In this document: one piece after another, positions 8,899 through 53,004 of the stretch
Layout of the letters: the number at the start of each line of letters is the position of its first letter
Position numbering within the stretch: the first letter of the stretch is position 1
Translations under genes and position numbers: made by a program
Notes under the pieces: model-generated
What the model was told of the DNA's origin: nothing
The model's database searches: none
What the model saw: only the letters and a program-made list of their open reading frames with translations
Assembly: GCA_017462795.1 (NCBI GenBank)
Contig: JAFTQL010000035.1
Location: 62,360 to 126,359 of the forward strand
Direction of reading: 5' to 3'
From: Clostridia bacterium
GTDB taxonomy: Bacteria; Bacillota; Clostridia; Oscillospirales; CAG-272
Length of the DNA stretch: 64,000 nt

Positions 8899-10836
8899 TT
8901 AATCTTCTTTTTTGCGCTTTGCAACAGCTACCGCACCCACTGCCAATGTCACAACAGATACTGCCGCGAATGTTACTGTAGAGCCGCATCCGCCGTCAGC
9001 CTTATCGGTGGTAACAGATGACGTTCCGTTTGCCTCGGCATCGGTGGTTGCCTGAGTGCCGTTGTTTTCGGTAGTTGAGTCATTTGTATCAACAGCCCCT
9101 GTGTCATTCGCCTCTGTATCTTTGGGCTCTTCCTTTACCTTAACAACGCTTGCTGGAGTTACGATAACATTCTCGCCTGTCTTGCCCTCGGGCCATACAA
9201 GTGTGCCCTTTGCCGCTTCCGCGTCGCCTGCTATAACGGTTACGTGGTCGATAAGAACCTTGACGTTAGGTCCGCCCGAGCTTGTTCCCAGCATAAAGGA
9301 GAAATCTGTTGCGAGAAGCGAGCTCTGAGGAGTTACCTCTATCGTCTTATCTCCCGAGGTAATGGTAGCGCTATCGAGCTTACGGTTTACAAAGTGGAAC
9401 TGATAGGTTACAAACTCAAAGTTATCTCTTGCGTCGTTGATAGCCGCTCCCTGCTCTGCCGTGTATCCGTCCTTACGGGTAGCGGAGTCAAATCCGTTGG
9501 AAGACTCGTTGGTCTGGTCGTAACGGATGCAGATATCGCCCGAATGAGTCGCAAGACCTGTAGTCTCATCAAGTGTTGTGTTGGGGCAGAGGCAGAGATA
9601 TCTCTTGTTATTTGCTTCCACAAACTTAAACTCTATCTCAATGGTGAAATGGCGGTTATACTCGGGAATAACTATACCCGAAGGAACAAGGTAAACCTTG
9701 GTGGAAGCGCCCTCAAGATACAGACCCTGCTCAGTATACGCATACTTTGCGTCGCTGTCAGCGCCTTCCTCGGGCTTTGTTACATAGTAACCTACGCTTG
9801 CGAGGTCGGTCACCTTGGTAAAGTCAACATGGTGAAGAATAGCCCCGTCAACGTATTCGGTAAGAGGTGTGTCCTCAAAACCGAGAATCTCTGTGGACTT
9901 TGCAATAGCGCGGTTCGCGTCGAAGAGCACAGGTGTGATCGTGATAGGCGTGTCGGGAGTGGAGGGAGTGTCGGGGGTGTCGGGAGTAACAGTACCGCCA
10001 TTGTCTATGTACGTCTGCTTGAGATCAACAGAATACTTAGTAGCGGTAGCGGTCTTAACAGTAACGTCGGAAACGCATCCGTCAAAGTTGGTATATACTG
10101 TTCCGTATACCTCACGGAGACCGAGAGCGAAATTACCCGCGCCGATGGCTACATCCGTGATATCAAGCTCAATAGTCTTGGTCGTGTCGTTTGCGAGAGT
10201 CATGGTAAGCTTGGTCATGGTCTTGCTTGCGGCATCAAAGGTGAAGTCATAGATAACAGCACTCGTGCCTTCAACGATTGCCTGTGCGATAGCGCTGTTT
10301 GTGGCAATGGTCTGCTTGTTCCAATACAGATGGTACTTATTGGTATCATCGTAGCATATCTTTATGGACGACTGATTTTCATCCGTCATCTCGGCACAGT
10401 AGTTCCATGCTCCGGCACTGTTAACATTAGCCGAGTTATCGGTTCCGACACCGAATACCAACCATGTATAGTTCTTGCTGGAGGGAGCTATGGTGGTTGC
10501 CGCACCCTCTGTATTAGAAGCCCAATTGTAATGGGTGGTGGTCATCTTAACAGAAAGAGTAACATTTTCCGTGATTGCCGTAAGATCGTAGTTGGCGGGT
10601 GTGAGCATAACAGCCGCTCCGCCTTGAACAAACGCATGCAAAAGCAGACCGTTCTGAGTAAGGCTTGTCGTACTTGCCTTAAAGGGAGTCGCGGAGTTGT
10701 TCTGGTTTACCACAGCTTTAACACCGAGATCAACTGTCGTGGTTTCAGCGGCAGAGACAAACGGTACAGCCACGGATGCGAGGAGAAGCACCATAAGTGC
10801 CGTTGCAAGGATACGCTTAAAAAGTTTTGTTTTCAT
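8899..10836 (-). CDS. Cassette A anchored member: secreted protein of unknown function with C-terminal GGCGS-TM-KRKK tail
   Basis: 645 aa. Signal peptide ...SVAVPFVSA|AE. The N-terminal domain is paralogous to 14037-15266 (LLLHAFVQGGAAVMLTPANYDLTAITENVTLSVKM vs GLYIKAFCQGAAGIMITHEQYDMTELTEDYTISVTM). A TPDTPDTPSTPDTP linker leads to a second beta-rich domain ending ..VLIDHVTV, then a T/D/N/E-rich linker. C-terminus: ADGGCGSTVTFAAVSVVTLAVGAVAVAKRKKED. Confidence 0.8.
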   Translation of the reverse strand: MKTKLFKRILATALMVLLLASVAVPFVSAAETTTVDLGVKAVVNQNNSATPFKASTTSLTQNGLLLHAFVQGGAAVMLTPANYDLTAITENVTLSVKMTTTHYNWASNTEGAATTIAPSSKNYTWLVFGVGTDNSANVNSAGAWNYCAEMTDENQSSIKICYDDTNKYHLYWNKQTIATNSAIAQAIVEGTSAVIYDFTFDAASKTMTKLTMTLANDTTKTIELDITDVAIGAGNFALGLREVYGTVYTNFDGCVSDVTVKTATATKYSVDLKQTYIDNGGTVTPDTPDTPSTPDTPITITPVLFDANRAIAKSTEILGFEDTPLTEYVDGAILHHVDFTKVTDLASVGYYVTKPEEGADSDAKYAYTEQGLYLEGASTKVYLVPSGIVIPEYNRHFTIEIEFKFVEANNKRYLCLCPNTTLDETTGLATHSGDICIRYDQTNESSNGFDSATRKDGYTAEQGAAINDARDNFEFVTYQFHFVNRKLDSATITSGDKTIEVTPQSSLLATDFSFMLGTSSGGPNVKVLIDHVTVIAGDAEAAKGTLVWPEGKTGENVIVTPASVVKVKEEPKDTEANDTGAVDTNDSTTENNGTQATTDAEANGTSSVTTDKADGGCGSTVTFAAVSVVTLAVGAVAVAKRKKED

Positions 10837-12509: not shown

Positions 12510-13760
12510 TCATTCTTTTATGAATGTAATAACGACATCCGACAAAAGAAGGAAATGGTCGGTATGACCCGTGTCGATAGCGCGGGCGTTGCTGCCCTCG
12601 ATACCCGCTGAGAAGATGATATTGTCGAACATCTGTCCGTTCTTGGTAGTCACAATATTCGTGCCCGCGTTGTTTGCCTTGGTGCTTCCCGGGAAGGCAT
12701 CGTCAAAATCGGACCATGTCTGCCAGTTAAAGTCACCCGCAACGATATAATGGCTATGGTTCTTTGCCTGTTCGTATATCTCGGCGAGCTGAGTTTTGAT
12801 AGTTCCCTGGTCATTGTGTGAGGAATAGAAGGCAAATTCTTCTCCTTCGACCTCGATGATCGTTTCAAGGAGCACACAGTTATTTTTTGAATTCATAACT
12901 GTCATTGGATACTCTTTGATTTCCTTGATAGGATATTTGGAAACTACTCCGACACCGCACCACCATTCCTCGCCTGCGGGAACATGGGTGCCGTTTGTCT
13001 CGTAAACACCGCTTGTCGCCTTACCGTACGCATAATAGTACTTCTGTCCGTTTCTGCTCTCAAGAGACTCCGCAATGATCCTGAGCGTATCCTGTCCCCA
13101 ATTTCGATTGGTGTTATAGTCTATCTCCTGAAAGGCGATAATGTCGGCGCCGTTATCATAAATATCGTCGGCTATCTTTGTGAAATCGGGGCTTCTTGAA
13201 TAGCTGTTACCAAGCTCGTGCGCGCCGCCCTCGTGAAGATTGAAGGTGGCAACCGTAAGCTCGATGTGCTTGTCGGTGTCGGCAACCGTCTTTCGCGTGG
13301 GAAGACCGGAAATACTCCATGTGTTGCCATCCTGCTTAAGAAGTTCCACAAACATCTCAGCGGCAGTCTCGACAAGATCCTCGTTCACACCGTAAAGAGC
13401 TATCTTTGTTCCTACCGCTGTGATAAGCAGCTCACGGTCAGCAAGTGACTCCGTGTTTGACGCTCTGTTCGTTTCTCCTATGAGTATCTCCTTTTCCCTC
13501 TCGGAGGCGGAATCATTTGTATATGGGATCGTGACACCTGTAAGCTCCTTTATCCTCTCGGATATAGCGACAGCCGTCTTTCTCATGGAGCGGTCGCCCG
13601 ACATGGAAAATACTATCTGATACTCAGAAGCTCCGTCAGCGCAGATGACCGCGCCCGTATCGTTATTGCTCTCCGTGTCATCAGTATTGCCTCCGCATGC
13701 GGTAAGCAGACACATGAGAAAGGCGAGAATCATTACTGTAATTTTTTTAATGATCTTCAT
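12510..13760 (-). CDS. Cassette A exported EEP-fold (endonuclease/exonuclease/phosphatase) phosphoesterase lipoprotein
   Basis: 416 aa. Lipobox LLTAC|GG. The N-terminal ~140-aa accessory domain contains ..EILIGETN... The EEP motifs are TVATFNLHEGG, IIAFQEID, GDFNW and the C-terminal GHTDHFLLL. Confidence 0.8.
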   Translation of the reverse strand: MKIIKKITVMILAFLMCLLTACGGNTDDTESNNDTGAVICADGASEYQIVFSMSGDRSMRKTAVAISERIKELTGVTIPYTNDSASEREKEILIGETNRASNTESLADRELLITAVGTKIALYGVNEDLVETAAEMFVELLKQDGNTWSISGLPTRKTVADTDKHIELTVATFNLHEGGAHELGNSYSRSPDFTKIADDIYDNGADIIAFQEIDYNTNRNWGQDTLRIIAESLESRNGQKYYYAYGKATSGVYETNGTHVPAGEEWWCGVGVVSKYPIKEIKEYPMTVMNSKNNCVLLETIIEVEGEEFAFYSSHNDQGTIKTQLAEIYEQAKNHSHYIVAGDFNWQTWSDFDDAFPGSTKANNAGTNIVTTKNGQMFDNIIFSAGIEGSNARAIDTGHTDHFLLLSDVVITFIKE

Positions 13761-14036: not shown

Positions 14037-15266
14037 TCAAGCCACGGTAACGCTGATTTCCTTAGCCGCGCTCACATACTTATTGCCTGCCGCGTCGGTC
14101 ACATAGGCGCGTACAACAAAGGTGTAAGACTTACCTGCCGAAAGACCTGTAACCGTCATAACTCCGAGATAACCGTCTGTTGCGGTAACGGTCTCCCCTG
14201 CCGCCTTGATAGATGTGTAAACGGTGGTAGAGCTGAGTATCTTTGCGCCCTTTGTACTATCCTTCAAGGATATCTCAAAGCCGTGAGATGCGTAATTTGC
14301 AAGCTCAGCCTCGGTCATGTTCAGCTCGGATACAACACGCAATGTAGTATTGTCGCTACTGAGCTGTCCGCCCTTTACGGTAGCGCGGCAGTTCTGGATA
14401 TCTGCGTAGCGCTCCGCGAAGTCAACGGAGTATTTGGTTTCACTTGACGTTTTTATAGAAATATCGGAAATCCAACCCTCCATATACGTCCACGCTGTAT
14501 CATCATATAACTCACGAAAACCTAAGCAGAAATTACCGTCATTGCCGAGAGATATAGGAGTTCCAAGGGTGTGCGTCCACACTTTTGATGTGTCACTCGC
14601 AAGAGTCATTTTTACTGTTGAAATTTGTTTGGTATCCACATCAACAAGAAAATCATATATGATTGCGATCTCGCCGTATATTACGTTTTTTGCAATTACA
14701 GATGTTGTTCCTGTAAGGAGAGCATCGCCGCGCGCCCAATATGTTTCAGTCCCCTCCTGATTACCACACACCTTGAGCGCATTTTTGGTATCATCCTGCA
14801 TATCCGATAAAAAGCCCCATTCACCGGCTGCGTCTACATTGCTTGAAATGTCGCTTCCTGCTCCGAATATCAGGTATGTACGATTTTTTCGGTTGGGCTT
14901 ATTGGTTTGAGTAGCACTCTCATTTGTTCCTGACAAATTCGTATGCTTTGATAACATTGTTACAGAAATCGTATAATCTTCTGTTAATTCCGTCATGTCA
15001 TACTGTTCGTGAGTGATCATAATACCTGCCGCACCTTGACAGAAGGCCTTAATATAAAGTCCATTGTTTGTCAGCATAGACTTACTTGCTTTAAATTCTT
15101 TGTCATTTAAGGTTGATGCATAACTGTTATATGAGCTTTGAACTGTCTTAACACCAACATTATCCGCATAAATCGTCTTGGTACTTTCTTCTGCTGAAAC
15201 GCTGAGGGGTAAAGCAGCAAGTGTTACACACAAAACTGCCAATATTAAAGATATTACCTTTTTCAT
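14037..15266 (-). CDS. Cassette A free member: secreted protein, N-terminal domain paralogous to 8899-10836, C-terminal shared ~100-aa module
   Basis: I prefer the start at 15266 (MKKVISLILAVLCVTLAALPLSVSA|EE) over the track start at 15356. C-terminal module: ..TLRVVSELN..GFEISL..TTVYTSIKAAG..SYTFVVRAYVTDAAGNKY. It has no anchor. Confidence 0.8.
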   Translation of the reverse strand: MKKVISLILAVLCVTLAALPLSVSAEESTKTIYADNVGVKTVQSSYNSYASTLNDKEFKASKSMLTNNGLYIKAFCQGAAGIMITHEQYDMTELTEDYTISVTMLSKHTNLSGTNESATQTNKPNRKNRTYLIFGAGSDISSNVDAAGEWGFLSDMQDDTKNALKVCGNQEGTETYWARGDALLTGTTSVIAKNVIYGEIAIIYDFLVDVDTKQISTVKMTLASDTSKVWTHTLGTPISLGNDGNFCLGFRELYDDTAWTYMEGWISDISIKTSSETKYSVDFAERYADIQNCRATVKGGQLSSDNTTLRVVSELNMTEAELANYASHGFEISLKDSTKGAKILSSTTVYTSIKAAGETVTATDGYLGVMTVTGLSAGKSYTFVVRAYVTDAAGNKYVSAAKEISVTVA

Positions 15267-15385: not shown

Positions 15386-16174
15386 TCATTCCACTATCAT
15401 ATCCGCAAGGAGTATGAAATGGTCTGAATGTCCGTAATTTACGGCGCGGAAGTTGTCCGCCTTTATTCCCTTTGAGAAAATAAGGTTATCAAATCGGTAG
15501 CCGTCGTGGGTGGTGACCAGCATATTTTCTCGGTTATTCGCCTGCGTCGTATCGGGGAAAATACGCTCAAAATCCTCGCACCTCTGCCAATTGAAATCTC
15601 CGGCAAGGACAAACCTCTCCTTGTCCTTCATGGTGTCGTAGGTAAACTGCATCTGCTCGTGTATGACACCTTGGTCATAATGGGAAACGTAGAAATGTAA
15701 CTCTTTTCCGTCAACGTCAAGCTTCGCTTCAAGAAGCACGCAATTTGGATTTTTACCTTTCATACAAGGCATTACGTATTTTGACGTGGATATTATCGGG
15801 AGCTTTGACACAAGTGCCACTCCTGTATATCCCTGCTTTACGGGAGCGCCGGGTGTATCCGAATAATCCGCTGTTGTTCCCGCGGCAAACGCGCTGTACC
15901 ACTTTTCCCCCGTTTTTTCTTCCAAGGCAGCCTTTATAATTCCAACACTGTCCTTGTAAAATGTCCATCCTCTGAACTGAAAGACCTCCTGAAAGCCGAC
16001 TATTTCAGCTCCCACCTTGACTATATCCTCGGCTATAAGCTCATAACCGATGTCGTCAAATTCAGGCATTTTCTCTCCGTCGAGAATCCGGGGCAAGTGA
16101 ACTCCGTCCTTCATCAGAAGATACTTGACACCGCCCTCCTTGAGATTGTAAGAAGCAACCGTTATTTTTTCCAT
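15386..16174 (-). CDS. Cassette A signal-less EEP-fold phosphoesterase
   Basis: 262 aa. MEKITVASYNLKEGG, IVGFQEVF, GDFNW, GHSDHFILL. It is a paralogue of the catalytic half of 12510-13760 and has no signal peptide. Confidence 0.8.
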   Translation of the reverse strand: MEKITVASYNLKEGGVKYLLMKDGVHLPRILDGEKMPEFDDIGYELIAEDIVKVGAEIVGFQEVFQFRGWTFYKDSVGIIKAALEEKTGEKWYSAFAAGTTADYSDTPGAPVKQGYTGVALVSKLPIISTSKYVMPCMKGKNPNCVLLEAKLDVDGKELHFYVSHYDQGVIHEQMQFTYDTMKDKERFVLAGDFNWQRCEDFERIFPDTTQANNRENMLVTTHDGYRFDNLIFSKGIKADNFRAVNYGHSDHFILLADMIVE

Positions 16175-25496: not shown

Positions 25497-25498
25497 AT

Positions 25499-27851: not shown

Positions 27852-28901
27852 TTAAATTACAAGATCGGTAATAATAGGTAAATGATCGGAGGGATATACG
27901 TGTACGCCGTCCGAGGTAGTGTACTCATAATCACCAACCCGATATTCAGCCACCTTATCCTTCAAAGCGTCGCTGACAAAACAGAAATCTATTCTGTCTC
28001 CGTTTCCGCTGTTACCGTCAATCGCCTGATAGTCCTGTCCCTGTGTTTCGACTCTGAACGCGCTGTTCCAAGTGTCACTGACTACGGTCTTTTTCGCGAT
28101 CAGTCCCGAATCGTTCCAGCCGCTATCCGTAACGGTACTGTAGAAATTTTTCCATCCCGTACCGTAATCCAAGCCGTTGGGAGCATCGTTAAAGTCCGCG
28201 GTCATAATGACCTTGTCGGTGCCATACTCGACCATAAGCTCCCCGACAAGCCTTTGCAGCATCTGCATCTGAGCGCAGCGCTCAAAGAACCTGAGCCTGA
28301 AAAGCAATTTTTCAACATCAGTCTTAGACTCATAATTGCCGTTGTTGTGTCCCCTGTGCTGGAGATGGGTATTAACATATATAATATCCTCTCCATCAAT
28401 ATCAAGCACAACATAATTCATAAGTCTTGAAGCGAGGCTGTAGCTATTGGGACTTGGCATTCCGTTCTTTTTAAGACCTGTGCCCTCATAATGTCCCAGA
28501 GCCGCAAGCTCATCCGATGTCATTTTTCCATCGGAAATAAGTCCGTCATAAGTCAGCGCAACCGTGGAATTAGTTCCGTCCGAGGTAAGCCAATTCCAGC
28601 CGTGATGCTTTACCTTAATACCGTTCTTTATATAAACAGAGCAGTATTCCATAGTATGAGCTTTGTGAACAGTATCGGGAATATAGCGTGTATATCCCTC
28701 CCCCAGAGATATATTGTTCACCCAATTATTGACGTCCTCCTGAAGTCCGACGATATCGGGCTGAAATGACAGTATCTGTTCAGCCACTGCCCGGACTCTG
28801 TTCTTTGACTGTCGGTTAAGCTCCCCCGTTCCGCCCTTGTGGCCATCCACGTCATAGGTATCCATGCGGACGTTGAAGCTGAGTATTCTGAGTTTTTTCA
28901 T
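27852..28901 (-). CDS. Cassette B signal-less EEP-fold phosphoesterase
   Basis: I prefer the ATG at 28901 (MKKLRILSFNVRMD), 3 nt after the upstream stop. Motifs IVGLQEDV, ADFND and YPSDHLPIITDL. Close paralogue of 33502-34683. Confidence 0.8.
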   Translation of the reverse strand: MKKLRILSFNVRMDTYDVDGHKGGTGELNRQSKNRVRAVAEQILSFQPDIVGLQEDVNNWVNNISLGEGYTRYIPDTVHKAHTMEYCSVYIKNGIKVKHHGWNWLTSDGTNSTVALTYDGLISDGKMTSDELAALGHYEGTGLKKNGMPSPNSYSLASRLMNYVVLDIDGEDIIYVNTHLQHRGHNNGNYESKTDVEKLLFRLRFFERCAQMQMLQRLVGELMVEYGTDKVIMTADFNDAPNGLDYGTGWKNFYSTVTDSGWNDSGLIAKKTVVSDTWNSAFRVETQGQDYQAIDGNSGNGDRIDFCFVSDALKDKVAEYRVGDYEYTTSDGVHVYPSDHLPIITDLVI

Positions 28902-28903
28902 AA

Positions 28904-30238
28904 TCAGTCTTGTGTCAGTGTTTCGGTCTTTGTTGCTCCGCAAGAAATATTTCCGTCAGCGTCACTCATATAAGTAGTTACCGTTGCGGAAACAGTAGCC
29001 TCTGCGGGAACTCCCGCAATTACCAGAACATACAGATAATCTCCGTCGATCACCGTCTCACCCGACCGAGTCTGCTTTGTAGTGTAAGTAATTCCGCCAC
29101 CCTGAACAGATGTGTAGACGGTATTGCAGGATACCTTCTGAGCCTTGGTAACTCCGCCATATGTAACGGTTACGTAAAATCCTATATCATTTATCTCTCC
29201 GAGATCCTCTGTATCAAGAACTCCGACCATACGGTAATCAACAAGTCCGTCAACCACCCTGTCCTGAATACCGTAGTAGCGTGTACTTGCGCTCACATCT
29301 GACGTGCAATCCGATACGTTCAATGTTTTTGTTGAGCCACTCTTCAAATTAGCATAATTCGAAGGATTATACTCTGACGGCAGTACAGTACAGCTTGTGA
29401 CTGTGGTGTTGGCATTTACCAAACCTATAATACTACCAGCTGTCGAGGTACCCATCTCGCCTTCAAGACTCACACTACAATTTGAAACAGATACAGATCC
29501 CGCATTTACACAATATCCTATTATACCGCCGACATTACTCGTGCCTTTTACAGTTCCGTTAAAAGAACAGTTGCTGATAGTTACAGTCGTTGATGTATTT
29601 TTTGATGTATCGTTTGCAACAGCGTTCACAGAGCCTATAATACCGCCAACCTGACCTGCGCCCTTAACATTACCGTTTATAATGTGAACATTATCGATAA
29701 TCAGATCGCTGTCATAAACATTTAAGTTCATTCGTGAGCCTACAATAGCACCAACATTTGCAACAGCGGCAGCAGATTCGCCGTTACTGCTTGTATTTTC
29801 CGCTGACGCATCAACAGTAATATTGATCAATGTCAGGTTCTTGATAGTACCTCCTGCAAAACGGAACATACCGGGACTTGATTTGCAGTTTGTTACATTG
29901 ATTCCCGCAACCGTATGACCGTTACCATCAAATGTACCGTCAAAGATTATACCCTTCCACGTTTTACCCGTATAGTCGATATCCGCAGTCAGCTTTATGT
30001 ATGCACCCTTCAGATTAGTATGAGGGCTTGTAGAGCTGTTGAATGCCGCAAGCTCATCCGCAGAACCGATAGTAAGCTCTATAGACGCGAAATCATCTTT
30101 TGTATAACCGCTGGTGCCGGCAAGCCATGACGACATGGAAACCGGTGTTCTTTGCGCGCTGTCAGTCGCAAATACTCCCATGGGAAGAAGAGTGAGAAGC
30201 ATTGCGCAAAGTATTAAGCAACATATAATTCTTTTCAT
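28904..30238 (-). CDS. Cassette B free member: secreted GLUG-type beta-helix repeat protein ending in the shared C-terminal module
   Basis: I prefer the start at 30238 (MKRIICCLILCAMLLTLLPMGVFA|TD, with GGGGGG upstream). FDGTFDGNGHTVAGINV is followed by repeated ..N[CV]..NG.V.G...VGGIIG. units. The C-terminal module reads ..YRMVGVLD..IGFYVTV..NTVYTSVQGGG..GDYLYVLVIAGV.. Confidence 0.75.
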   Translation of the reverse strand: MKRIICCLILCAMLLTLLPMGVFATDSAQRTPVSMSSWLAGTSGYTKDDFASIELTIGSADELAAFNSSTSPHTNLKGAYIKLTADIDYTGKTWKGIIFDGTFDGNGHTVAGINVTNCKSSPGMFRFAGGTIKNLTLINITVDASAENTSSNGESAAAVANVGAIVGSRMNLNVYDSDLIIDNVHIINGNVKGAGQVGGIIGSVNAVANDTSKNTSTTVTISNCSFNGTVKGTSNVGGIIGYCVNAGSVSVSNCSVSLEGEMGTSTAGSIIGLVNANTTVTSCTVLPSEYNPSNYANLKSGSTKTLNVSDCTSDVSASTRYYGIQDRVVDGLVDYRMVGVLDTEDLGEINDIGFYVTVTYGGVTKAQKVSCNTVYTSVQGGGITYTTKQTRSGETVIDGDYLYVLVIAGVPAEATVSATVTTYMSDADGNISCGATKTETLTQD

Positions 30239-30471: not shown

Positions 30472-31947
30472 TTACTTTCTCTTTTTGCAAACTACCGCAC
30501 CCGCGCCTGCAAGTACCGTCATTATAACAATGCCTGCGCCGATCGCTGATCCGCATCCGCCTTCATCTGTTACAGCCTCTGTTCCGTCTCCGCCTTCTGT
30601 GGCAGCAGAACCGTTATCTGTTGTATTTGCGGTGCCATCCGTTTCGGTATTGCTGTTGTTACCTGTATCTGTACTATCGTTATTGTTATCGGTATCGGCA
30701 CTGCCGTTATTGTTGTTATTATTGTTATTGTTTTCGGAAGATGCTGTCTTGCTGATAAGAGTATCCGCAAGAAGCGCTGTCGCGAGCGTTGCGTCCTCTG
30801 CCGCCGATGTTGTACCCTCGTTTCCGCTCTCGGTCACATTACCTGACTGAACAGCATAACCGAACACTGCATTTGCGCTGCCGTCTGCTGCCGCCGCACC
30901 CGTAGTTATTGCACCGAAGTTTTTGCAGTTGGTAACACTTACCTTATGAGAATCGGCAGTTCCGATAATTGCTCCGACATAATAGTTGTTTGTCTTGACA
31001 CTACCGTTATTGATACAACCGCTGATCACGCTTGCCTCAGTTGCCTGAGTGGAGTAACAGCGCGCAATGATTCCGCCTGTTCCCCTTGTATTCTTATCCA
31101 TAGCCTTGGATTCGACAGCACCCGCGTTACGGCAGTTTGTAACAGTGATCTTTACATTGGATGTACCTACGATACCGCCCGCATCGCGTGCAGCGGCGGT
31201 TATCGCTCCGGTATTTGTGCAGTTGGTAACTGTATGAGTGGAAACGCCTGTTGCCTCGTTGAACTCATCCTGCGTTACCTTTTGTCCCGCAACATTATAT
31301 GAACCTACACCCGTAACACTGGAATAACCTACTATACCGCCTATCATTGCGCTCGTACCCTCAACGGTTGCTTTGTTCCAACAGTTATCAACAGTAGTGT
31401 TCATGCCCTTATCTCCGGTAATACCGCCGACTATACCGCCTGTTCTGTTGCCGCCCTTAAAAGAGCAGCCCTCTCCAAGAATAACATTCTTGATGGTTGC
31501 ACCCTGAACATTTCCGAACAGACCTACGTGCTGAGTAGTTCCGTAATCAACCACGAGGTTATCAATTGTATAGCCCTGACCGTCAAATGTACCTCTGAAG
31601 GGCTTTGTGTTTGCCTCGGAAGCGCCGCCTCCGATAGGCTTGAAGTTGTTGACACCTGTCATATCGATGTCATTTGCAAGATAGAGCGTGATCCCGCTGA
31701 AGCGGCTCTCCGCTATGCTGACAGCGGTAAGCTCGAGAGCTGTGGATATCTTGAATTCCTTTGCCTCGGTCTCTGGATTTGCTATGTATTCCGCAACGCT
31801 GGGAATATTGGAAAGATCCTTCTGCTCCACTCTCGCGTCGGAATATCCTACTATGTCCGCTGTGATCTGCGCGTCTGCCGCCATGGCAGGAATGGCAATA
31901 CCCAATGCAAGAATTGCCGTAAGAATGAATGCGATTACTTTTTTCAT
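30472..31947 (-). CDS. Cassette B anchored member: secreted GLUG-type beta-helix repeat protein with C-terminal GGCGS-TM-KKRK tail
   Basis: 491 aa. Signal peptide ..GIAIPAMA|AD. FRGTFDGQGYTIDNLVV, then repeats with TGGIVGG, IGGIVGY, AGGIVGT, TGGIIAR and VGAIIGT. A poly-Asn/Thr/Asp linker (NNNNNNNNN) follows. C-terminus: DEGGCGSAIGAGIVIMTVLAGAGAVVCKKRK. Confidence 0.8.
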   Translation of the reverse strand: MKKVIAFILTAILALGIAIPAMAADAQITADIVGYSDARVEQKDLSNIPSVAEYIANPETEAKEFKISTALELTAVSIAESRFSGITLYLANDIDMTGVNNFKPIGGGASEANTKPFRGTFDGQGYTIDNLVVDYGTTQHVGLFGNVQGATIKNVILGEGCSFKGGNRTGGIVGGITGDKGMNTTVDNCWNKATVEGTSAMIGGIVGYSSVTGVGSYNVAGQKVTQDEFNEATGVSTHTVTNCTNTGAITAAARDAGGIVGTSNVKITVTNCRNAGAVESKAMDKNTRGTGGIIARCYSTQATEASVISGCINNGSVKTNNYYVGAIIGTADSHKVSVTNCKNFGAITTGAAAADGSANAVFGYAVQSGNVTESGNEGTTSAAEDATLATALLADTLISKTASSENNNNNNNNNGSADTDNNNDSTDTGNNSNTETDGTANTTDNGSAATEGGDGTEAVTDEGGCGSAIGAGIVIMTVLAGAGAVVCKKRK

Positions 31948-37599: not shown

Positions 37600-37638
37600 T
37601 TTTAAAGCTCTCCCTATACTGTATTTTGTATATTTGCA

Positions 37639-37667
37639 ATTATACTACAAACACCGCTGTTTTGCAA
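37639..37667 (-). promoter_or_regulatory. Candidate sigma-A promoter of GDPD gene 36766-37599
   Basis: Minus strand reads TTGCAA-17 nt-TATAAT. Confidence 0.6.
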
Positions 37668-37708
37668 TAGAAAATTTGTTTTTTCGTAAAAATACCTGCG
37701 CGAGAATA

Positions 37709-41388: not shown

Positions 41389-42585
41389 TTAATTAATGGA
41401 AAAATCCGTTATCTTCGGACTGTGATCCGAGGAGAGACAAGCGTATCTGTCGGTAACTGTCGCGAAAAGCTCCACCAACAGTCCGTCCTGCCATACATGG
41501 TCTATAGACCATTCGCCGCTTTTTGAGGAATGGGAGGGACAGGTGATGAACAGCTCTGCCTCCGTGTCCCATACGGCATACGCGCCGTGACCGTTGACGG
41601 AGTTCAGCGCGCATCCCGAATCGTCAGCCGCGCTTTGTACTCTCACAAGACCGCTCTCAGCGAGTATGTCAAGCGGCTCTGTGTCTCCTCTGCCGTAGCT
41701 GCAGTTGAGGTCGCCTCCGACTATCATCGGCAAATTGCCGTGCTCCGCGCGGATATCCGCCAGCAGCTCTGTCAGCTCTACGGCATTTGAGCACCTGGTT
41801 TTATTGGCAACTCCCGCCTCAAGCTCGGGATCATTCCACATAAAGTGAGTACACATGGCGATAAATCTTTTTTTGTCGTCATTGCGCTCAAATACCGCCC
41901 ATGTTACCGATTTGGAGCTTACGTCGTTAGCACCGCCGAACAGTCTGTATCCGCACGCGACTACCTTCAAGGTGTCCGCTCTGTAAAACAGGGGGGTGAG
42001 GTTAGTTCCCTTTTCGTTGCGCAGCTCGCCGTTTCCCACCTCGGTATAACCAAGCGCCTCCAAGCCACCAAGGAACTCCTGCTTGCGGTAATGCTTGCCG
42101 AATTCCTGAAAGGCAAGTATATCGGCATTGTAGGATCTCAGCAGGCTGAGCTGAAAGGGCTGACGCTCGGCGGGCGTGGTGTTTGCCTTTTTGTTGTTCC
42201 AGCCGTATACGTTATAGTTCATATAACGTACCCGACCCGCCCGCTTTGCTCCGCAGGTCCTCAGAGAAACGCCGTCGCCCGACAACGATGTAATACCGTC
42301 AAGCGATTCCTTTGTCCGCAGCTCCTCACGGAGAGCCGACATTGCCGCCTCGTAGCCGTAGGCAGAGCCCGCGCATATGTATACGCGATCACCCTCGGAG
42401 CGGATCACATATCCGTCACCCTCGGGCATATCCGCATCGCCGATGTATATATCGCCGTCCGCCCCACTGTCGCATATTATTTCGGAAGTTATTCCCTGAT
42501 ATTCGGCTATCGCCGCCCGCAATTCCGACGCGGTATAGCGCTCCTCAAAGGACGCCTCTGCCGGAATTATTATCCGTTGATCCAT
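41389..42585 (-). CDS. Cassette C signal-less EEP-fold phosphoesterase with N-terminal accessory domain
   Basis: 398 aa. The N-terminal ~100 aa (..DIYIGDAD..DRVYICAGS..) resemble the accessory domains of 12510-13760 and 39418-41214. Motifs ILAFQEFG, GGDLNCS and SSDHSPKITDF. The start overlaps the stop of 42585-43796 (TAATG). Confidence 0.8.
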   Translation of the reverse strand: MDQRIIIPAEASFEERYTASELRAAIAEYQGITSEIICDSGADGDIYIGDADMPEGDGYVIRSEGDRVYICAGSAYGYEAAMSALREELRTKESLDGITSLSGDGVSLRTCGAKRAGRVRYMNYNVYGWNNKKANTTPAERQPFQLSLLRSYNADILAFQEFGKHYRKQEFLGGLEALGYTEVGNGELRNEKGTNLTPLFYRADTLKVVACGYRLFGGANDVSSKSVTWAVFERNDDKKRFIAMCTHFMWNDPELEAGVANKTRCSNAVELTELLADIRAEHGNLPMIVGGDLNCSYGRGDTEPLDILAESGLVRVQSAADDSGCALNSVNGHGAYAVWDTEAELFITCPSHSSKSGEWSIDHVWQDGLLVELFATVTDRYACLSSDHSPKITDFSIN

Positions 42586-43796
42586 TATGCAACAGTTTCA
42601 ACAGTAATATCAGCTGCTGTGTTACCACTGACAGTGATCTTATATGTGTCTCCTACCTGTTCGCCATTTTCCATATGGTAAGCTACTGCGTAGAAGGTAT
42701 ATGTGGTATTCACTTTCAGACCCGTCAGCTTCATACAATACAGATAATCTCCACCGAGCCACCAAGCATGACATGTATTATCGTCTGCAATAATACTCTT
42801 GTATACCGTACCACAAGCTATGGGATCAAGAGTCTTATTGTCAGTGGAAAGCTTAAATCCTATATTTTCGCTTGCAAGGTTTTGGGTATTCAGCAATCCA
42901 ACCAAACGAAGTGTATATTCATCATTCTCTACTGCAGTTGCCTGCACACCGGCAATTTTGGTTACGGTGTCTGTTTTTTTGCCATTGAGTGTAACAGTAG
43001 TCAGGTTGTCAGATGATACAGCATAGAAATCATTACTTATATCTTTTTCATCATCCAAAGTAAATTCACCGCAGTTAGTAAAATAAGCGTTGAATCCAGC
43101 CTTAAGCTGTACATAGGCAAATCCTATACCTATATCGCACGAACCGTTTGCGATAGCATCCTTTACATCTTCAGTCAAAGGCACAGCAATGTGATAAATT
43201 GCAACCGCAGGGGTACTGTCAGACGCTATATCGTCATTTCTTCCGATTAAAATACCATTTTCCATGGCTGACGCTTTGTTTACAGAAGCATAAATCTTAG
43301 GTCCCCATGCACCGGACCAACCTCTATCCTGCAAAGTCAGTTTATCATATGTTAAATGATTTGTATACTTGCCATCTAAATCATCATCTTCACTGTAAGC
43401 AGCGTAATGCACTCTTAAAACAATTTTATTATCAACTTCACTATCCGCAGTATTAAAGTCAACGTATATAAATTCTTCGGCGTGTTGATGTGCGTTTGTA
43501 TAATCACTATTGTATTTTTTCAAATAATTCATAGTCGTTTTTATATACAAGTAATCGCCATCATGAGCTACGGCAAATGAGTCTCCATTGGTAGAATAAC
43601 CATTCACTGCCGTTCCCGCTACTGTGTTATTCCACACATAAGAAGCTCCACTGTATTCGGGATTCAACTGCTCCGCAGTCATTCTGTCTCCCTGCGCGAC
43701 CTCAATAGCGGGAGATGCCGCTGTCCAAGCCATTGCAGGTACGCTTAACGCAAAGAGCGAAGCGCAAACAAGTAAAATAGAAATAATTTTTTTCAT
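42585..43796 (-). CDS. Cassette C free member: secreted protein, N-terminal domain paralogous to 43818-45590, C-terminal shared module
   Basis: 403 aa. Signal peptide ..LSVPAMA|WT. HDGDYLYIKTTM and IYHIAVPLTEDVKDAIANGSCDIGIGFAYVQ..YFTNCGEFTLD match HAGDYLYIYTRM and IFHIAVPLSEANKTALANGSCNIGVGFAYIQ..YYTNCGEFTLD. The C-terminal module reads ..TLRLVGLLN..IGFKLS..GTVYKSIIADD..GDYLYCMKLTGL..TYTFYAVAYH. Confidence 0.75.
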   Translation of the reverse strand: MKKIISILLVCASLFALSVPAMAWTAASPAIEVAQGDRMTAEQLNPEYSGASYVWNNTVAGTAVNGYSTNGDSFAVAHDGDYLYIKTTMNYLKKYNSDYTNAHQHAEEFIYVDFNTADSEVDNKIVLRVHYAAYSEDDDLDGKYTNHLTYDKLTLQDRGWSGAWGPKIYASVNKASAMENGILIGRNDDIASDSTPAVAIYHIAVPLTEDVKDAIANGSCDIGIGFAYVQLKAGFNAYFTNCGEFTLDDEKDISNDFYAVSSDNLTTVTLNGKKTDTVTKIAGVQATAVENDEYTLRLVGLLNTQNLASENIGFKLSTDNKTLDPIACGTVYKSIIADDNTCHAWWLGGDYLYCMKLTGLKVNTTYTFYAVAYHMENGEQVGDTYKITVSGNTAADITVETVA

Positions 43797-43817
43797 GTCA
43801 ATTCTCCTTTGATTTTT

Positions 43818-45590
43818 TTATTTTTCGGAGGTCTTTTTTGCTTTTCCAAAGCATGCCGCCGCAATAAGCACAACAGCCATCACCATTGCCATGCCGCCGA
43901 TGGAAGAATTACATCCGCCCTCCGCGTCATCAGTGCTGTTGGTGTCAGTCGCCTGAACATCGCCGCTTGTTTCCACATCCGAGTCGCCCGCGGTCGTTTC
44001 CTCGGCATTCGTGTCGCTCGGAACGGAGGGTACTGTGGACTTATTAGCCACAAAGTCGGCATAAGAGGCTGTTATAAACTCCTCAAATTTGGGCATTACA
44101 AGCTTCATTCCGTTCATATTGAGATGGGAAACATCTGTATTGGTCAGGCAATACTGAGAGCGGAATGTCTCGCTTGTCATGTCAACGCCCGAAACAGCGG
44201 GATCGTTTGCCTTGAAGCAATATACTCCCTGTGCCTCGCAGACACTTATCATGGCGTTGGCATAATCCGCAGACTTAAGTCCGATGTCGTTTGTACCGCC
44301 AAAGTTCCAGACAGTTGTAAACATTATCATAGCGTCGGGGTACTTCTCCTGCAGACCGTCAATGAGAACATTCAGCGCTCCCATAAAGGTCTTGGGGTCG
44401 GTGCTGTCCACTGTTCCCAGCGGTACTTCATTGTTATAGTCATTGCGTCCGCCGTCTACGATAATAAGGTCTGCGTCGTTATCCGCCATGCCCTTATAAC
44501 GGTCAACCATGGGAGTGGGATCAACGGTGGGAGCATAGCTTGATACCATTCCTCCGTTCATGCCGTAGTTCTTGAACTTCCAATAGTATTTGTCAGAAAG
44601 AAGCTTGGGCCATACGTAATCATTACCCATGGTGTGTCCCGCAAAGTAACTGTCTCCAATAATATTTACGGTAAGATCCTCAAGAGCCATGTCATAGGCG
44701 CGGCTTCTGTCCGCCTCTACCCACGCCTTCATCTGAGCGGCGATCTGCTCGGGAGTTACCTCGGCGATGTCCGCGCTTCCGATAACATTATCGGGAGTTG
44801 TGGTATTCGTACCCTTTTTAAGGGTAACAGTGGTAAGCTTATCCTCTGTTATATCGTCGTAAAAATCGTTACCTACGTTGTCGGCGTTGTCAAGAGTGAA
44901 CTCGCCGCAGTTGGTGTAGTATCTCTCAGCACCCGCTGTCTTGCACTGGATGTAGGCAAAGCCCACGCCGATATTGCAGGAACCGTTTGCGAGAGCCGTC
45001 TTGTTCGCCTCGCTGAGCGGTACCGCGATATGGAAGATAGCGTCCTCGCTGTTCTTGTTGCTGTACTCGTTACGTCCGAAGAGGATACCCGCCGCAAGAC
45101 CGCTATCCTTGTTTACGGTGGCGTTATAGCCGGGTCCCCATTCGTCGTTCTGACGCGCTCTGTCAACGACACCCTCTTTATAGTAGGATATATTTGTTCC
45201 GTCAAGCACATAAGGACCGTAATTGGGCTTGGTGATCATAATGTAATCCACCTTGTTGTCGCCCTGAGTAAGGTCAACGTAAATAAATTTCTCTACCTGT
45301 GTACGGTAAGCATAGGGAGGAGTCATCCTTGTGTATATGTACAGATAATCTCCCGCGTGTGTTATTTTAAATTCGCCCACGCCCTCATATGCGCCGTAGT
45401 TAGTTCCCGCAACGGTAACCGCGCCGCTCCAGTCATACGCCGCGTCACCCTCAAGCTCGGCGTATATCTGCTCATATGTCATTCCGTTGCTCTGCGGAAC
45501 CTCCACAGCGGGGGTTGTCCACGCCATTGCGGGAACGCTCAGCAAGAGCAAGGAGATACAGGCAAGTATCAAAGATATAGCTTTTTTCAT
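43818..45590 (-). CDS. Cassette C anchored member: secreted protein with shared N-terminal domain + SGNH esterase domain + C-terminal GGCNS-TM-KAKK tail
   Basis: 590 aa. Signal peptide ..LSVPAMA|WT. SGNH blocks VNIIGDSYFAG, GMNGGMV, IVDGGRNDY and DVSHLNMNGMK. C-terminus: AEGGCNSSIGGMAMVMAVVLIAAACFGKAKKTSEK. Confidence 0.8.
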   Translation of the reverse strand: MKKAISLILACISLLLLSVPAMAWTTPAVEVPQSNGMTYEQIYAELEGDAAYDWSGAVTVAGTNYGAYEGVGEFKITHAGDYLYIYTRMTPPYAYRTQVEKFIYVDLTQGDNKVDYIMITKPNYGPYVLDGTNISYYKEGVVDRARQNDEWGPGYNATVNKDSGLAAGILFGRNEYSNKNSEDAIFHIAVPLSEANKTALANGSCNIGVGFAYIQCKTAGAERYYTNCGEFTLDNADNVGNDFYDDITEDKLTTVTLKKGTNTTTPDNVIGSADIAEVTPEQIAAQMKAWVEADRSRAYDMALEDLTVNIIGDSYFAGHTMGNDYVWPKLLSDKYYWKFKNYGMNGGMVSSYAPTVDPTPMVDRYKGMADNDADLIIVDGGRNDYNNEVPLGTVDSTDPKTFMGALNVLIDGLQEKYPDAMIMFTTVWNFGGTNDIGLKSADYANAMISVCEAQGVYCFKANDPAVSGVDMTSETFRSQYCLTNTDVSHLNMNGMKLVMPKFEEFITASYADFVANKSTVPSVPSDTNAEETTAGDSDVETSGDVQATDTNSTDDAEGGCNSSIGGMAMVMAVVLIAAACFGKAKKTSEK

Positions 45591-45611
45591 TTTTATCCCC
45601 CGATGAAATTA

Positions 45612-47093
45612 TTAGTTTGCAACGCCGAGGAGCTTTGCGCTCAGAGCCTTGATGTTCGCCTCTACCTCGGGGAGCTTGTCATTGATGTAGCCTTCCCATG
45701 TCTCGCTGTTCTCAAGACATCTTCCGGGCATATCGCAGACATACTTTGTCTCCTGTGCGTAGATTCTCGCGCAGTCAAACCAAGCGGTGTCACGGATAAG
45801 TGTGAGCATCTCACTCATCTCAGCAGATGTTGCGCGCAGATACTTCATACACTCGTCAAAGATAACGGGTGTGGTCTGACGGTAGCCCTCGCTGGAGAGG
45901 CACTCAAGTGTTCCCGTAACCTCTGCCATGCGGCTCTCGGGTACGTTCGCCATGATACCGTAAAGTGTTATTGGCTGACGAATGGTGGAGTAATATGTCT
46001 CCTGATCGCTGTCATACTTTGGCAGCGGAACGCATCCGTACTCAAAGCTTACGTCCGCAAGATCATTGAGTCCCGCCGCGCTCTCGGTTATAAAGAACGC
46101 CGCCTTGCCGGCGCGGAAGCCGTCTATGCTTGCGTCAACAAACGCGATGTTGTTGGTGATAGCGTCGGAAAGCTTGGTCATTACATTGATAGCCTTCTCG
46201 CCCTTGTAGGTGTCATCCATTACAAATCCGCCTGCGGCATCTCTTGCAACTATCGGAATATCGCATCCATGAAGAACTGCGGGCCACGCGTAGTAAGAAC
46301 CTACGATACCCAGACGGTCCTCAACATCGGCAACACCGTTTTCGTTAAGGTCACTGTATATGTTCTTGTTGAGATTGAGCATGGATTCAAGTGTCCACTG
46401 ATTCTTCTCAACCAGGGAGTAGGGAGACTCCAGCTCTCTGTCTTTGAGCATATCGGCATTGAAATACATGCAATATGTCATCTGAATAAGGTTGGTGGAT
46501 ACGTCACCTGTACAGAAGTAGAAGGTATCGCCGACCGCTGTGTTTTCAATTACGTCCTGAGACCACCAGGGCTCATCAAAATCGAGGTAACTGTCTTTAA
46601 TACCGCTCAGATCCATAAGCAGACCCGCGCTTGCGCAGAGCGCTGTGCTTCTCGTATAAGACGCGATAATATCCCAATATTCGCCGCCGTTGTACGCATT
46701 GAGCACCTTGGTCTTATAGTCGCCGCAGTACTTAACGCTTCCGAGAGTTTCCTCAAAGACAAGCGTTACGCCCATACGGCTCTCAACTGTCTCGTTTCTC
46801 CAGAAGATGGCATTGTCCACTACGTTGTTTCCATACTCTACCTCAAATTCCGAATACTCGGAATTCCAGCAAAGAATGTTGACCTCGTCGGAATGGAAAT
46901 TCATCTCCGGCAGGGAATCCATTTTGTAGCCGTTCTTGTCGTACAAAATATCATCACCCGAAGTTCCTATCACTCCGTCCATGCTCTGCTCGGTATCGCC
47001 TCCGTCGCCCTTACATCCGGCAAATACCGCCAGAACAAGCGCCAGCGAAAGCATAAGCAACGCGATCCGAACAAGTCTTGTTTTGTTTCTCAT
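45612..47093 (-). CDS. Cassette C lipoprotein, solute-binding-protein-like (orphan)
   Basis: 493 aa. Lipobox VFAGC|KG. GGAGG RBS. Paralogous to 10909-12444 and 32000-33466. Confidence 0.75.
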   Translation of the reverse strand: MRNKTRLVRIALLMLSLALVLAVFAGCKGDGGDTEQSMDGVIGTSGDDILYDKNGYKMDSLPEMNFHSDEVNILCWNSEYSEFEVEYGNNVVDNAIFWRNETVESRMGVTLVFEETLGSVKYCGDYKTKVLNAYNGGEYWDIIASYTRSTALCASAGLLMDLSGIKDSYLDFDEPWWSQDVIENTAVGDTFYFCTGDVSTNLIQMTYCMYFNADMLKDRELESPYSLVEKNQWTLESMLNLNKNIYSDLNENGVADVEDRLGIVGSYYAWPAVLHGCDIPIVARDAAGGFVMDDTYKGEKAINVMTKLSDAITNNIAFVDASIDGFRAGKAAFFITESAAGLNDLADVSFEYGCVPLPKYDSDQETYYSTIRQPITLYGIMANVPESRMAEVTGTLECLSSEGYRQTTPVIFDECMKYLRATSAEMSEMLTLIRDTAWFDCARIYAQETKYVCDMPGRCLENSETWEGYINDKLPEVEANIKALSAKLLGVAN

Positions 47094-47217
47094 ACAAAAC
47101 CTCCATTTTTTATTTTTATTTAAATTTTCCCTTAGGAAAATATTAAATCCTTATATAGCTGTTTTGTTAAACTTAAGCGTTTATATTGGCTATATGATTG
47201 GACATATTCTACACTTA

Positions 47218-47246
47218 ATTATATATGTTTTTTACAAACGTGTCAA
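47218..47246 (-). promoter_or_regulatory. Consensus sigma-A promoter for cassette C
   Basis: Minus strand reads TTGTTGACA-cgtttgtaaaaaacata-TATAAT, a perfect -35 and -10 with 17-nt spacing, ~125 nt upstream of the 47093 start. Confidence 0.7.
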
Positions 47247-51586: not shown

Positions 51587-51614
51587 ATTATTTCTCCTCA
51601 ATTTAATTCTTTAT

Positions 51615-51836
51615 GATTGCAATATTGACTCTGTCTGCGTCGCTCCGCGACTTGCCAATCGCCGTGTTGCTGCTCTTCCTTTTTCCTCGCTTCTTCGCCC
51701 ACTGGGCGCGCTCGGTAACGTCTCCGATTGCAACATCGTCTCTGTCTGCGTCGCTCCGCGACTTGCCAATCGCCGTGTTGCTGCTCTTCCTTTTTCCTCG
51801 CTTCTTCGCCCACTGGGCGCGCTCGGAAACGTCACC
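51615..51836. repeat. Tandem direct repeat, 2 x 111 bp
   Basis: Copy 1 spans 51615-51725 and copy 2 spans 51726-51836. They differ at 5 positions, all near the unit ends. The repeat fills the enolase/GH5-like intergenic gap and overlaps the last 5 nt of the enolase-family gene. Confidence 0.9.
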
Positions 51837-52983: not shown

Positions 52984-53004
52984 ACTTATTCCTCCTTAAA
53001 TGAT

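Follow-up and report, generated by a model that had tools for sequence, protein, structure and literature searches.

The CBM37 module attaches enzymes of Ruminococcus albus to the cell surface (PMC4081043). Csc gene clusters of Lactobacillales, for which a role in carbohydrate acquisition has been proposed, form multi-copy cassettes that encode Sec-secreted proteins only. Some of these proteins are anchored, whereas others carry a conserved C-terminal module that binds non-covalently, and the clusters are described as absent from clostridia (Siezen et al. 2006, PMC1534035). Here we describe three gene cassettes (A, B, and C) from a 64,000-nucleotide window of a Clostridia bacterium metagenome-assembled genome (MAG; GCA_017462795.1, contig JAFTQL010000035.1, positions 62,360 to 126,359) that follow a related plan from different parts. 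Each cassette encodes two secreted proteins with homologous N-terminal 'heads'. One of them (the anchored copy) ends in a stalk and a membrane anchor, and the other (the free copy) ends in a module that defines a domain family outside current Pfam and NCBIfam models. All genes of the three cassettes are on the minus strand, which carries almost every gene of this window (47% G+C), and the gene calls and coordinates of a preliminary description of the DNA are correct.

Other described systems resemble parts of this arrangement. In Bacillus anthracis, one locus places a single type of binding domain, NEAT, both in released hemophores (IsdX1 and IsdX2) and in wall-anchored IsdC. This likeness offers a ligand-relay reading of the cassette pairs, but there is no homology between the Isd and window proteins. 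Csc operons include a small LPXTG-anchored protein, CscD, whose likeness is a headless protein of 143 amino acids with a GGC-type tail from a cassette in another genome (locus L006). The window anchors differ from those of Csc systems because they consist of a GGC motif and a transmembrane helix rather than LPXTG, and the cassettes also include a solute-binding protein (SBP)-like lipoprotein and EEP phosphoesterases. Membership in the WxL/Csc group can be rejected: six window proteins have no WxL or DUF916 match at E ≤ 1, and neither family is among the 25 listed of the 46 Pfam families matched by 50 modules. Cohesin-dockerin systems of cellulosomes and amylosomes provide a further parallel, in that a conserved C-terminal module on diverse heads would dock to an anchored partner. 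However, no cassette protein has a dockerin or cohesin match in Pfam, the module is an all-beta domain of 120 amino acids and not a calcium-binding helical pair, and no receptor domain common to the cassettes was found.

The modules are encoded by nucleotides 14040-14387 (cassette A), 28907-29287 (cassette B), and 42609-42965 (cassette C, residues 278-396 of 403). The preliminary description had proposed that these endings are conserved across cassettes, and alignment statistics bear this out. The three tails match each other in pairwise BLASTP with E values of 6e-10, 1e-7, and 1e-9. Smith-Waterman alignments give z scores of 7.6 to 12.3, and none of 2000 shuffles reaches the observed score. 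A profile of 50 family sequences recovers the A, B, and C modules with E values of 8.8e-31, 2.1e-33, and 4.5e-38, respectively. Exactly three copies are present in a six-frame translation of the window, and the anchored proteins hold none. The domain is longer than the approximately 100 amino acids first suggested for it, with lengths ranging from 115 to 125.

Many relatives of the module exist outside the window. An exhaustive profile search of 1.84 billion representative proteins finds at least 425 clusters (50% identity) at E ≤ 1e-3, and 20 at E ≤ 1e-10, when the profile is built from the three window tails alone. A word-indexed homologue search with the 50-sequence alignment returned nothing at E ≤ 1e-5, and with the three tails it returned five fragments. 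The named sources are uncultured Clostridia MAGs and one cultured species of Lachnospiraceae, Anaerotaenia torta. Among the 153 best matches, the module lies within 25 amino acids of the C-terminus in 140 (92%) and is internal, between a head and a catalytic domain, in the other 13. Signal-peptide-like N-termini are present on 115 of the 148 proteins in this set that start with methionine. The module consensus is G.Q...D.R[FL]V...VGF.V...TVYTSI.A.G.T.TA..LGG.Y..AL.I.G.P...F.V.PY...G, in which the arginine is invariant, a glutamine, a glycine, and a tyrosine each occur in at least 90% of sequences, and TVY.S forms a consensus motif. The modules are acidic, with a mean net charge of -6.5. No Pfam or NCBIfam model covers them. 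The type IX secretion C-terminal domain (Por_Secre_tail) was considered and rejected, as it has no Pfam or NCBIfam match here and the sources with a name belong to the Clostridia rather than to Bacteroidota.

The C module was modeled by itself with AlphaFold2, which gives a confident all-beta structure (pLDDT 90.6, pTM 0.83). Foldseek comparison of this model with the PDB returns only generic V-type Ig domains at TM-scores below 0.5, with no close solved structure, and PDB sequence searches with the module give nothing significant, the best result being a match to FN3 F/G strands (E 0.11). Sub-threshold matches to fn3, Big_5, and Pur_ac_phosph_N are limited to the last 35 or so amino acids of the module. 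The gathering threshold of PF00041 (25 bits) is not reached, since the best scores are 17.9 bits for the A free protein and 18.6 bits for a family member designated P0007. Only positions 39-82, approximately, of the roughly 84 in this model are matched, and only two of 50 modules match at E ≤ 1. The module resembles FN3 and bacterial Ig-like domains (PF00041 and PF13205) in its predicted all-beta sandwich and, in its last 35 or so residues, the pattern ..TGL..G..Y.F.V.AY...G.. In contrast, its N-terminal two-thirds, with the G.Q, R[FL]V, VGF, and TVYTS motifs, are unmatched by FN3, and it is about 30 amino acids longer. On this evidence, the module represents a genuine family of beta-sandwich domains, FN3-like in the C-terminal third and missing from both Pfam and NCBIfam.

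The FN3-like signature in the F/G-strand region could mean that the module is a passive end domain, a cap or linker with no specific partner, in which case free copies would simply be released while anchored copies remain cell-bound. This is the plainest form of the 'alternative fates' suggested in the preliminary description. It agrees with the internal position of the module in 13 of 153 proteins and with the absence of an identified partner or ligand site. In addition, module and head class diverge together as one unit: for 58 of 59 modules, the nearest neighbor comes from the same head class (see below). For a passive linker, however, a terminal position in 92% of cases would not be expected, nor would a passive domain readily account for polar and aromatic positions conserved across the whole family (the invariant arginine, the glutamine, glycine, and tyrosine at 90% or above, and TVY.S) or for an A-lineage module that is more conserved (64-70%) than its head (37%). 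We regard a purely passive role as rather unlikely. The preliminary description would have been refuted by a generic Ig-like spacer lacking cassette specificity, and this applies by half. The module is a common FN3-like sandwich on many unrelated heads and is not special to these cassettes, but its terminal position does not fit a spacer, and its sequence tracks head class.

Each free protein is a paralogue of the anchored protein from the same cassette, with which it has a signal peptide and a head in common, as had been proposed. The C free protein (42585..43796, 403 amino acids) carries its head of about 250 residues between a type I signal peptide (..VPAMA/WT) and the C-terminal module, and is 100% identical to the NCBI entry 'MAG: hypothetical protein IJY08_03530 [Clostridia bacterium]'. 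The genes are also present in assemblies labelled XIEF21, and a ruminant origin is likely if this label denotes the ruminant-gut MAG set of Xie et al. 2021. The C anchored protein (43818..45590, 590 amino acids) begins with the same kind of signal peptide and head, then continues into an SGNH/GDSL domain, an acidic stalk rich in Thr, Asp, and Ser, and a GGCNS motif that precedes a transmembrane helix and KAKK. The two C heads are 47% identical over 286 amino acids by BLASTP (E 5e-67), and their signal peptides are nearly identical. The A free protein (14037..15266, 409 amino acids) consists of a head and the module, while the A anchored protein (8899..10836, 645 amino acids) has a head, a second domain of about 260 amino acids, a stalk, and a GGCGS motif with a transmembrane helix and KRKK. 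The A heads are 38% identical over 306 amino acids (E 4e-59).

Cassette B has a putative GLUG/beta-helix-like head with the module in its free protein (28904..30238, 444 amino acids) and a putative GLUG-like head, a stalk rich in Asn, Thr, and Asp with a poly-Asn run, and GGCGS, a transmembrane helix, and KKRK in its anchored protein (30472..31947, 491 amino acids). These repeat-rich heads are only 27% identical by BLASTP (E 3e-4). Because this direct match is weak, a profile was built from nine heads of the B free type. This profile recovers the B anchored protein (E 1.1e-25) and gives no score with any of 500 shuffled sequences. The best domain of this match (E 9e-14) falls in the non-repetitive N-terminal 157 amino acids. 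Both B heads also match one common set of about 47 module-bearing proteins and share the motif F.GTFDG.G[HY]. The endings of the pairs differ as had been described, but they are not the sole difference between pair members, given the additional domains of the A and C anchored proteins.

Little DNA similarity remains within the pairs. None is detectable in A or B, and C retains two short, weak stretches (69% and 82% identity). The duplicates must therefore be old, and recent gene conversion between pair members can be ruled out by the same comparison. The pentapeptide GDYLY, which is common to the C head and the modules, is a coincidence of five residues.

The SGNH/GDSL domain of the C anchored protein matches PF13472 at residues 311-496 (E 6e-13, 50.1 bits against a gathering cut-off of 32.9), in agreement with the esterase assignment made earlier. 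The C free protein has no Pfam match. Its AlphaFold2 model has a pLDDT of 70.7, mostly 45-85 in the head, and with this modest model confidence the head retrieves CBM9 structures (1i82, 7nwn, and 7nwo) in Foldseek at probability 1.00 with target TM-scores of 0.50-0.53. The C head of about 250 residues may therefore have a CBM9-like fold, although Pfam CBM9 (PF06452) is not matched by the window proteins or by six C-type relatives. The B proteins of the window also lack Pfam matches, including to PF07581 and PF05342 (Peptidase_M26_N). Among 94 module-bearing proteins scanned, three match Glug and four match Peptidase_M26_N, as do P0062, a BLASTP homologue of both B heads, and P0069. PDB sequence searches with profiles for the A-type heads, the C-type heads, and the B anchored protein gave nothing significant. 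A scan of JGI metagenomes with C-type heads gave no locus, and a locus scan with the A-type alignment gave one genome locus.

Most module proteins have no Pfam-recognizable head. The minority that do carry CBM9_1, Laminin_G_3, Glug/Peptidase_M26_N, CBM_4_9 with a beta-helix, CBM96, Metallophos, metallo-beta-lactamase, or EEP domains as heads or partners. Phosphoesterase-type partners include Metallophos (P0062) and the metallo-beta-lactamase fold (P0052, P0067, and P0146). Of the head classes represented in the window, B-type GLUG-like heads are found on 48 of the 153 module proteins (about a third), C-type heads on six, and A-type heads on five. Modules of different classes are about 27% identical. 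The predominance of same-class nearest neighbors indicates that the module has long traveled with each head class rather than being freely shuffled.

Even so, endings have been exchanged. P0006, a module-terminated protein encoded at the syntenic position in a MAG from roe-deer colon, shares 64% identity with the A anchored head but only 37% with that of the A free protein. As judged from these alignments, the same head does occur with swapped endings. GGC tails are absent from all 153 module proteins, just as the module is absent from the anchored proteins, so by sequence the two endings are mutually exclusive, and they are exchangeable. GLUG-type heads with 25-34% identity occur elsewhere, in 86 open reading frames (ORFs) from 80 metagenome loci. 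Several of these ORFs end in xPxTG-type sortase signals, and none carries the module or a GGC tail. Therefore, in this lineage the module and the GGC tail occupy the place that sortase anchors have elsewhere.

Rates of change differ between lineages. When the A free protein (14037-15266) is compared with P0006, P0007, and P0010, the signal peptide (MKK..SLILAVLC.TLAALPLSVSA) is well conserved and the modules are 54-70% identical to that of the window, whereas the head between them is at most 37% identical and is the fast-evolving part. The C lineage shows the reverse, with a head 72% identical and a module 39% identical to those of P0040.

The endings of the anchored proteins are alike in all three cassettes. 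They consist of GGC[GN]S, 18-21 hydrophobic residues, and a cluster of Lys or Arg, and the same ending is present on the 143-amino-acid protein of L006. In the window they are encoded by nucleotides 8902-8994 (cassette A, GGCGS with KRKK), 30475-30561 (cassette B, GGCGS with KKRK), and 43821..43919 (cassette C, GGCNSSIGGMAMVMAVVLIAAACFGKAKKTSEK). The preceding stalks are acidic and rich in Thr, Asp, Asn, and Ser, with lengths of 42-77 residues. Those of the window are of low complexity and have net charges of -8 to -13. The B stalk (30562-30792) is rich in Asn, Thr, and Asp and contains a run of nine Asn residues. Electrostatic docking of the module onto the stalks was rejected, because both are acidic, although this argues only weakly against it.

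This layout of a signature motif with an invariant cysteine, then a transmembrane helix, and then a basic C-terminal cluster is the one that defines sorting signals of the MYXO-CTERM class. MYXO-CTERM, Synerg-CTERM, JDVT-CTERM, and CGP-CTERM have the tripartite layout and the invariant cysteine in common. Experiments have shown that MYXO-CTERM is cleaved by a protease of the CPBP family, and cognate CPBP enzymes have been predicted for the other three signals. However, the window anchors score above threshold with none of the curated models (TIGR03901, TIGR04564, TIGR04288, and JDVT). NCBIfam searches with the tails return two MYXO-CTERM-anchored families (E 0.004-0.03), which include the sub-threshold match for the C anchor, and sortase-signal models that are matched through the transmembrane and basic part, all below threshold. 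No LPXTG is present in the anchors. The basic cluster is rich in Lys in the window tails versus Arg in the described Cys-type signals, and the terms 'Clostridi', 'Firmicutes', and 'Bacillota' do not occur in the text of the preprint that describes these signals. No CPBP-family protease (PF02517) is encoded in the window or in approximately 10 kb more of the MAG. From its composition, the GGC[GN]S tail can safely be expected to tether the anchored copy in the membrane. The three-part layout shared with Cys-type sorting signals means that the tail may also be cleaved and lipid-attached at the cysteine, a possibility that is raised by analogy.

The headless protein (L006 9535-9966 and L007 4262-4693) consists of a signal peptide, an acidic low-complexity stalk of about 100 amino acids, and GGCGS, a transmembrane helix, and KKK. 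It is found in another genome between an SBP gene and a C-type module gene, the slot occupied by the anchored protein in cassette C. This slot is thus conserved whether or not a head is present. Moreover, an anchored partner that is only a stalk cannot be a folded receptor.

That homologous GLUG-type heads of other Firmicutes bear xPxTG sortase signals in the place of the module could indicate that the module itself holds proteins at the surface. It would then be a non-covalent retention domain, like CBM37 or the WxL domains of lactobacilli and enterococci, that binds the cell's own wall glycan or another surface component, and both paralogues would be cell-associated by two different mechanisms. 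Its terminal position in 92% of matches, its many unrelated secreted heads, and its restriction to a set of Clostridia are all in keeping with such a role. The R. albus CBM37 is the nearest functional precedent by analogy, being a lineage-restricted C-terminal attachment module from a rumen species of Clostridia (Xu et al. 2004; Ezer et al. 2008; Dassa et al. 2014, PMC4081043). Both are modules of about 100 amino acids, usually C-terminal on many secreted proteins, and take the place of dockerins or sortase signals found in relatives. They differ in that CBM37 modules are shorter (about 85-100 amino acids), often in tandem, and mostly on glycoside hydrolases (GH), polysaccharide lyases (PL), and carbohydrate esterases (CE), while the module described here is present in single copy, mostly on non-catalytic heads and phosphoesterases. 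The mix of anchored and non-covalently bound paralogous proteins in Csc/WxL operons is a second precedent (PMC1534035).

However, identity with CBM37 can be rejected. The module profile scores about 1 bit on the GH11-CBM22-GH10-CBM37 xylanase encoded by pRUMAL02 of R. albus 7, which is not significant in a two-sequence search; the C-terminus of this xylanase was taken as CBM37 from the architecture table of PMC4081043. The modules also have no WxL, SLH, LysM, or CWB2 match in Pfam. Furthermore, they are acidic. Wall-binding modules are mostly basic, and the acidity argues weakly against classic binding of wall polymers. With these points on both sides, we consider surface retention by the module unlikely.

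The strongest clue to the role of the module comes from genes for EEP phosphoesterases. The EEP gene of cassette C (41389..42585; PF03372) begins with an ATG that overlaps the stop codon of the C free gene (TAATG), and that of cassette B (27852..28901) starts 2 nucleotides past the B free stop (TGA-TT-ATG). Similar coupling is found at two other loci, with a gap of 2 nucleotides in L007 and an ATGA overlap in L008. In cassette A, the corresponding gene (15386..16174) is directly upstream of the A free gene. Overall, an EEP gene is located within one gene of six of the seven distinct module genes whose surroundings were read. The EEPs of cassettes A, B, and C named above lack signal peptides, and the EEP coupled to a secreted module gene in L007 (5996-6886) also lacks one.

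In some cases, module and EEP are parts of one protein. An L008 gene (4865-6883, corresponding to P0117) from the roe deer colon MAG Clostridia bacterium RGIG4231 encodes a protein of 672 amino acids with a signal peptide, an A-type head, the module, and an EEP domain. Its end is overlapped by the orthologue of the window EEP gene 15386-16174. No such fusion is present at the syntenic position in the window, which lies between 16306-17814 and 15386-16174. P0072 is a further A-type fusion, and P0069 is an independent GLUG-type fusion with the module at residues 724-830 and EEP at 857-1098. Fusions of head, module, and EEP thus occur in two independent head classes. Together with the tight gene coupling, they make a functional link between module proteins and EEP the best supported of the new conclusions. 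A programmed -1 frameshift that would join the module protein to the downstream EEP was considered, as all four junctions place EEP in the -1 frame. It was not adopted, since a slippery heptamer is absent, the chance expectation is about 1/8, and the geometry is that of ordinary stop/start coupling.

The EEPs are themselves paired within cassettes, with one lipoprotein and one protein lacking a signal peptide that are 41-44% identical. This pairing and the link to the module are additions to what the preliminary description reported. The lipoprotein members are encoded at 12510..13760 (cassette A, 41% identical to the signal-peptide-less EEP of this cassette), 33502-34683 (cassette B), and 39418-41214 (cassette C). 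Between cassettes, the catalytic domains show no match at E < 1e-3. The EEP domain of the L008 fusion is 53% identical to the window lipoprotein EEP versus 36% to the signal-peptide-less form. In cassette C, the lipoprotein EEP-like gene is interrupted by a single in-frame stop (..KLTELG*SEVRV..). A contig from the same species (L002) reads Tyr at this position and encodes an intact protein of 598 amino acids, with three mismatches and no gaps over 1987 nucleotides. This stop marks either a nonsense polymorphism at the strain level, a pseudogene, or an error of sequencing.

EEP is the most consistent partner of the module, and for this reason we read the module-terminated copy as an EEP-associated targeting arm. 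In each cassette, a Sec-secreted head that was duplicated long ago is joined to two ends, the stalk with its GGC[GN]S, transmembrane, and Lys/Arg tail in one copy and the module in the other. The tail would keep the first copy membrane-bound, with the head exposed to the outside. The module would not be a membrane anchor but would probably bind the EEP enzymes of the cassette, so that the module-terminated copy serves as a non-membrane, ligand-targeting arm that works with them. The anchored copy would present the same kind of head at the cell surface. The pair would then put one binding specificity in two locations, rather than keeping one copy on the cell and discarding the other. We tentatively prefer this combination of an EEP targeting arm with a surface-displayed copy, while leaving considerable room for doubt.

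Several points weigh against it. The EEPs coupled to module genes have no signal peptide and, as annotated, would be cytoplasmic and could not meet a secreted partner, so the interaction would need to involve the lipoprotein EEP paralogues. One module gene (P0156, in L004) has neither an EEP neighbor nor an anchored partner, and in most family members the chain contains no catalytic partner. Within the fusions, the module could act as a passive linker. The Foldseek comparison with the PDB (TM-scores below 0.5) gives no structural clue to a partner or ligand. Finally, the whole basis of the proposal is sequence and gene context from an uncultured organism represented by a MAG. The earlier suggestion of 'docking or alternative fates' stays plausible in the light of these data: the A anchored and P0006 heads support alternative endings on one head, but no receptor for docking was found.

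Gene content near the cassettes raises another explanation for the module. The window includes genes for GH127, a GH78-type alpha-L-rhamnosidase, GH10, and GH16, as well as two GDPD genes, SGNH and DUF4886 esterases, sugar-acid enzymes, and AraC and LysR regulators. Judged by its predicted products, the region is rich in carbohydrate and phosphoester metabolism genes. A C-terminal beta-sandwich in this setting might be a substrate-binding carbohydrate-binding module that gives the free copy a second glycan specificity. Some family members also have CBM9, CBM_4_9, CBM96, or Laminin_G_3 domains, and a site for sugars could be built from the conserved Tyr, Gln, and Arg. Nevertheless, the module matches no Pfam CBM family, the heads already resemble binding domains, and only one aromatic position (Tyr) reaches 90% conservation, to which the Tyr of TVY.S can be added. 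Substrate binding by the module is the least probable of the explanations discussed here.

In a broader proposal, the module and the GGC[GN]S tail would together make up a protein-display system of uncultured gut Clostridia that has so far gone unrecognized. A dedicated enzyme would process the tail to yield a lipid- or wall-linked stalk protein, and the module would dock dozens of different secreted heads and phosphoesterases onto the cell surface. Such a system would be a functional counterpart of cohesin-dockerin, WxL/Csc, or CBM37 assembled from unrelated parts, and we judge it quite improbable. As it stands, nothing here is categorically new; the cassettes represent a modular surface-protein organization built from a domain and an anchor motif outside Pfam and NCBIfam models.

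Annotation is missing for many proteins of uncultured gut and rumen Clostridia. The analysis of this window defines a domain family outside Pfam and NCBIfam (at least 425 clusters), a possible new C-terminal anchor of the Cys type, and a recurring cassette of four parts, among them an orphan SBP-like lipoprotein. A docking or retention role of the module, if confirmed, would account for the placement of binding proteins and phosphodiesterases at the surface in the absence of sortase signals or dockerins, and it would help to predict which proteins this clade displays at its surface. If it is a passive FN3-like end domain, then the finding reduces to ordinary diversification of paralogues. The association with EEP, GDPD, metallophosphoesterase, and metallo-beta-lactamase domains makes phosphodiester-linked polymers candidate substrates.

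Each cassette is organized like an operon. The order SBP-like lipoprotein, anchored protein, module-terminated protein, and EEP phosphoesterase is common to cassettes B and C and to L006. Cassette A has the same four parts in a permuted order. In cassette C, the intergenic gaps are at most 21 nucleotides, and a perfect sigma-70-type promoter match (TTGACA-17-TATAAT; 47218..47246, minus strand) is located upstream of the SBP gene, which suggests that this cassette is probably a single operon. No convincing intergenic terminator was found between its genes.

The first gene of this operon encodes the SBP-like lipoprotein (45612..47093; Pfam SBP_bac_8 and SBP_bac_1), with paralogues in cassettes A (10909-12462) and B (32000-33466). 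Pairwise identity among them is 22-26% (E 1e-16 to 1e-30), and a fourth SBP-like lipoprotein is found at L089 1122-2573. No gene for an ABC permease or ATPase is present anywhere in the window. These lipoproteins may bind glycans at the surface instead of being subunits of a transporter. The cassette C SBP gene is called in two pieces of 266 and 202 amino acids in a different assembly from this species (L001 6696-8185), which is a further strain or assembly difference within the cassette.

Esterase genes are found beside the cassettes on the minus strand, with an SGNH/GDSL lipoprotein encoded at 23405-24781 and a DUF4886-like protein at 38434-39357. The two GDPD genes are at 36766-38416, and in L006 the cassette is followed by a GDPD-EEP fusion. 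These neighbors suggest polymers decorated with phosphodiesters or esters as substrates. Long ORFs on the plus strand that run over the genes, such as 44634-47123 and 25424-26701, can be dismissed as antisense artefacts. Similar catabolic gene sets are located downstream of cassette B (24819-27580) and upstream of cassette C (49695-53643), both on the minus strand. Each includes a dehydratase of the mandelate racemase/MLE type, a short-chain dehydrogenase, and a protein with a metallo-beta-lactamase fold, and their presence beside two cassettes suggests that larger blocks have been duplicated.

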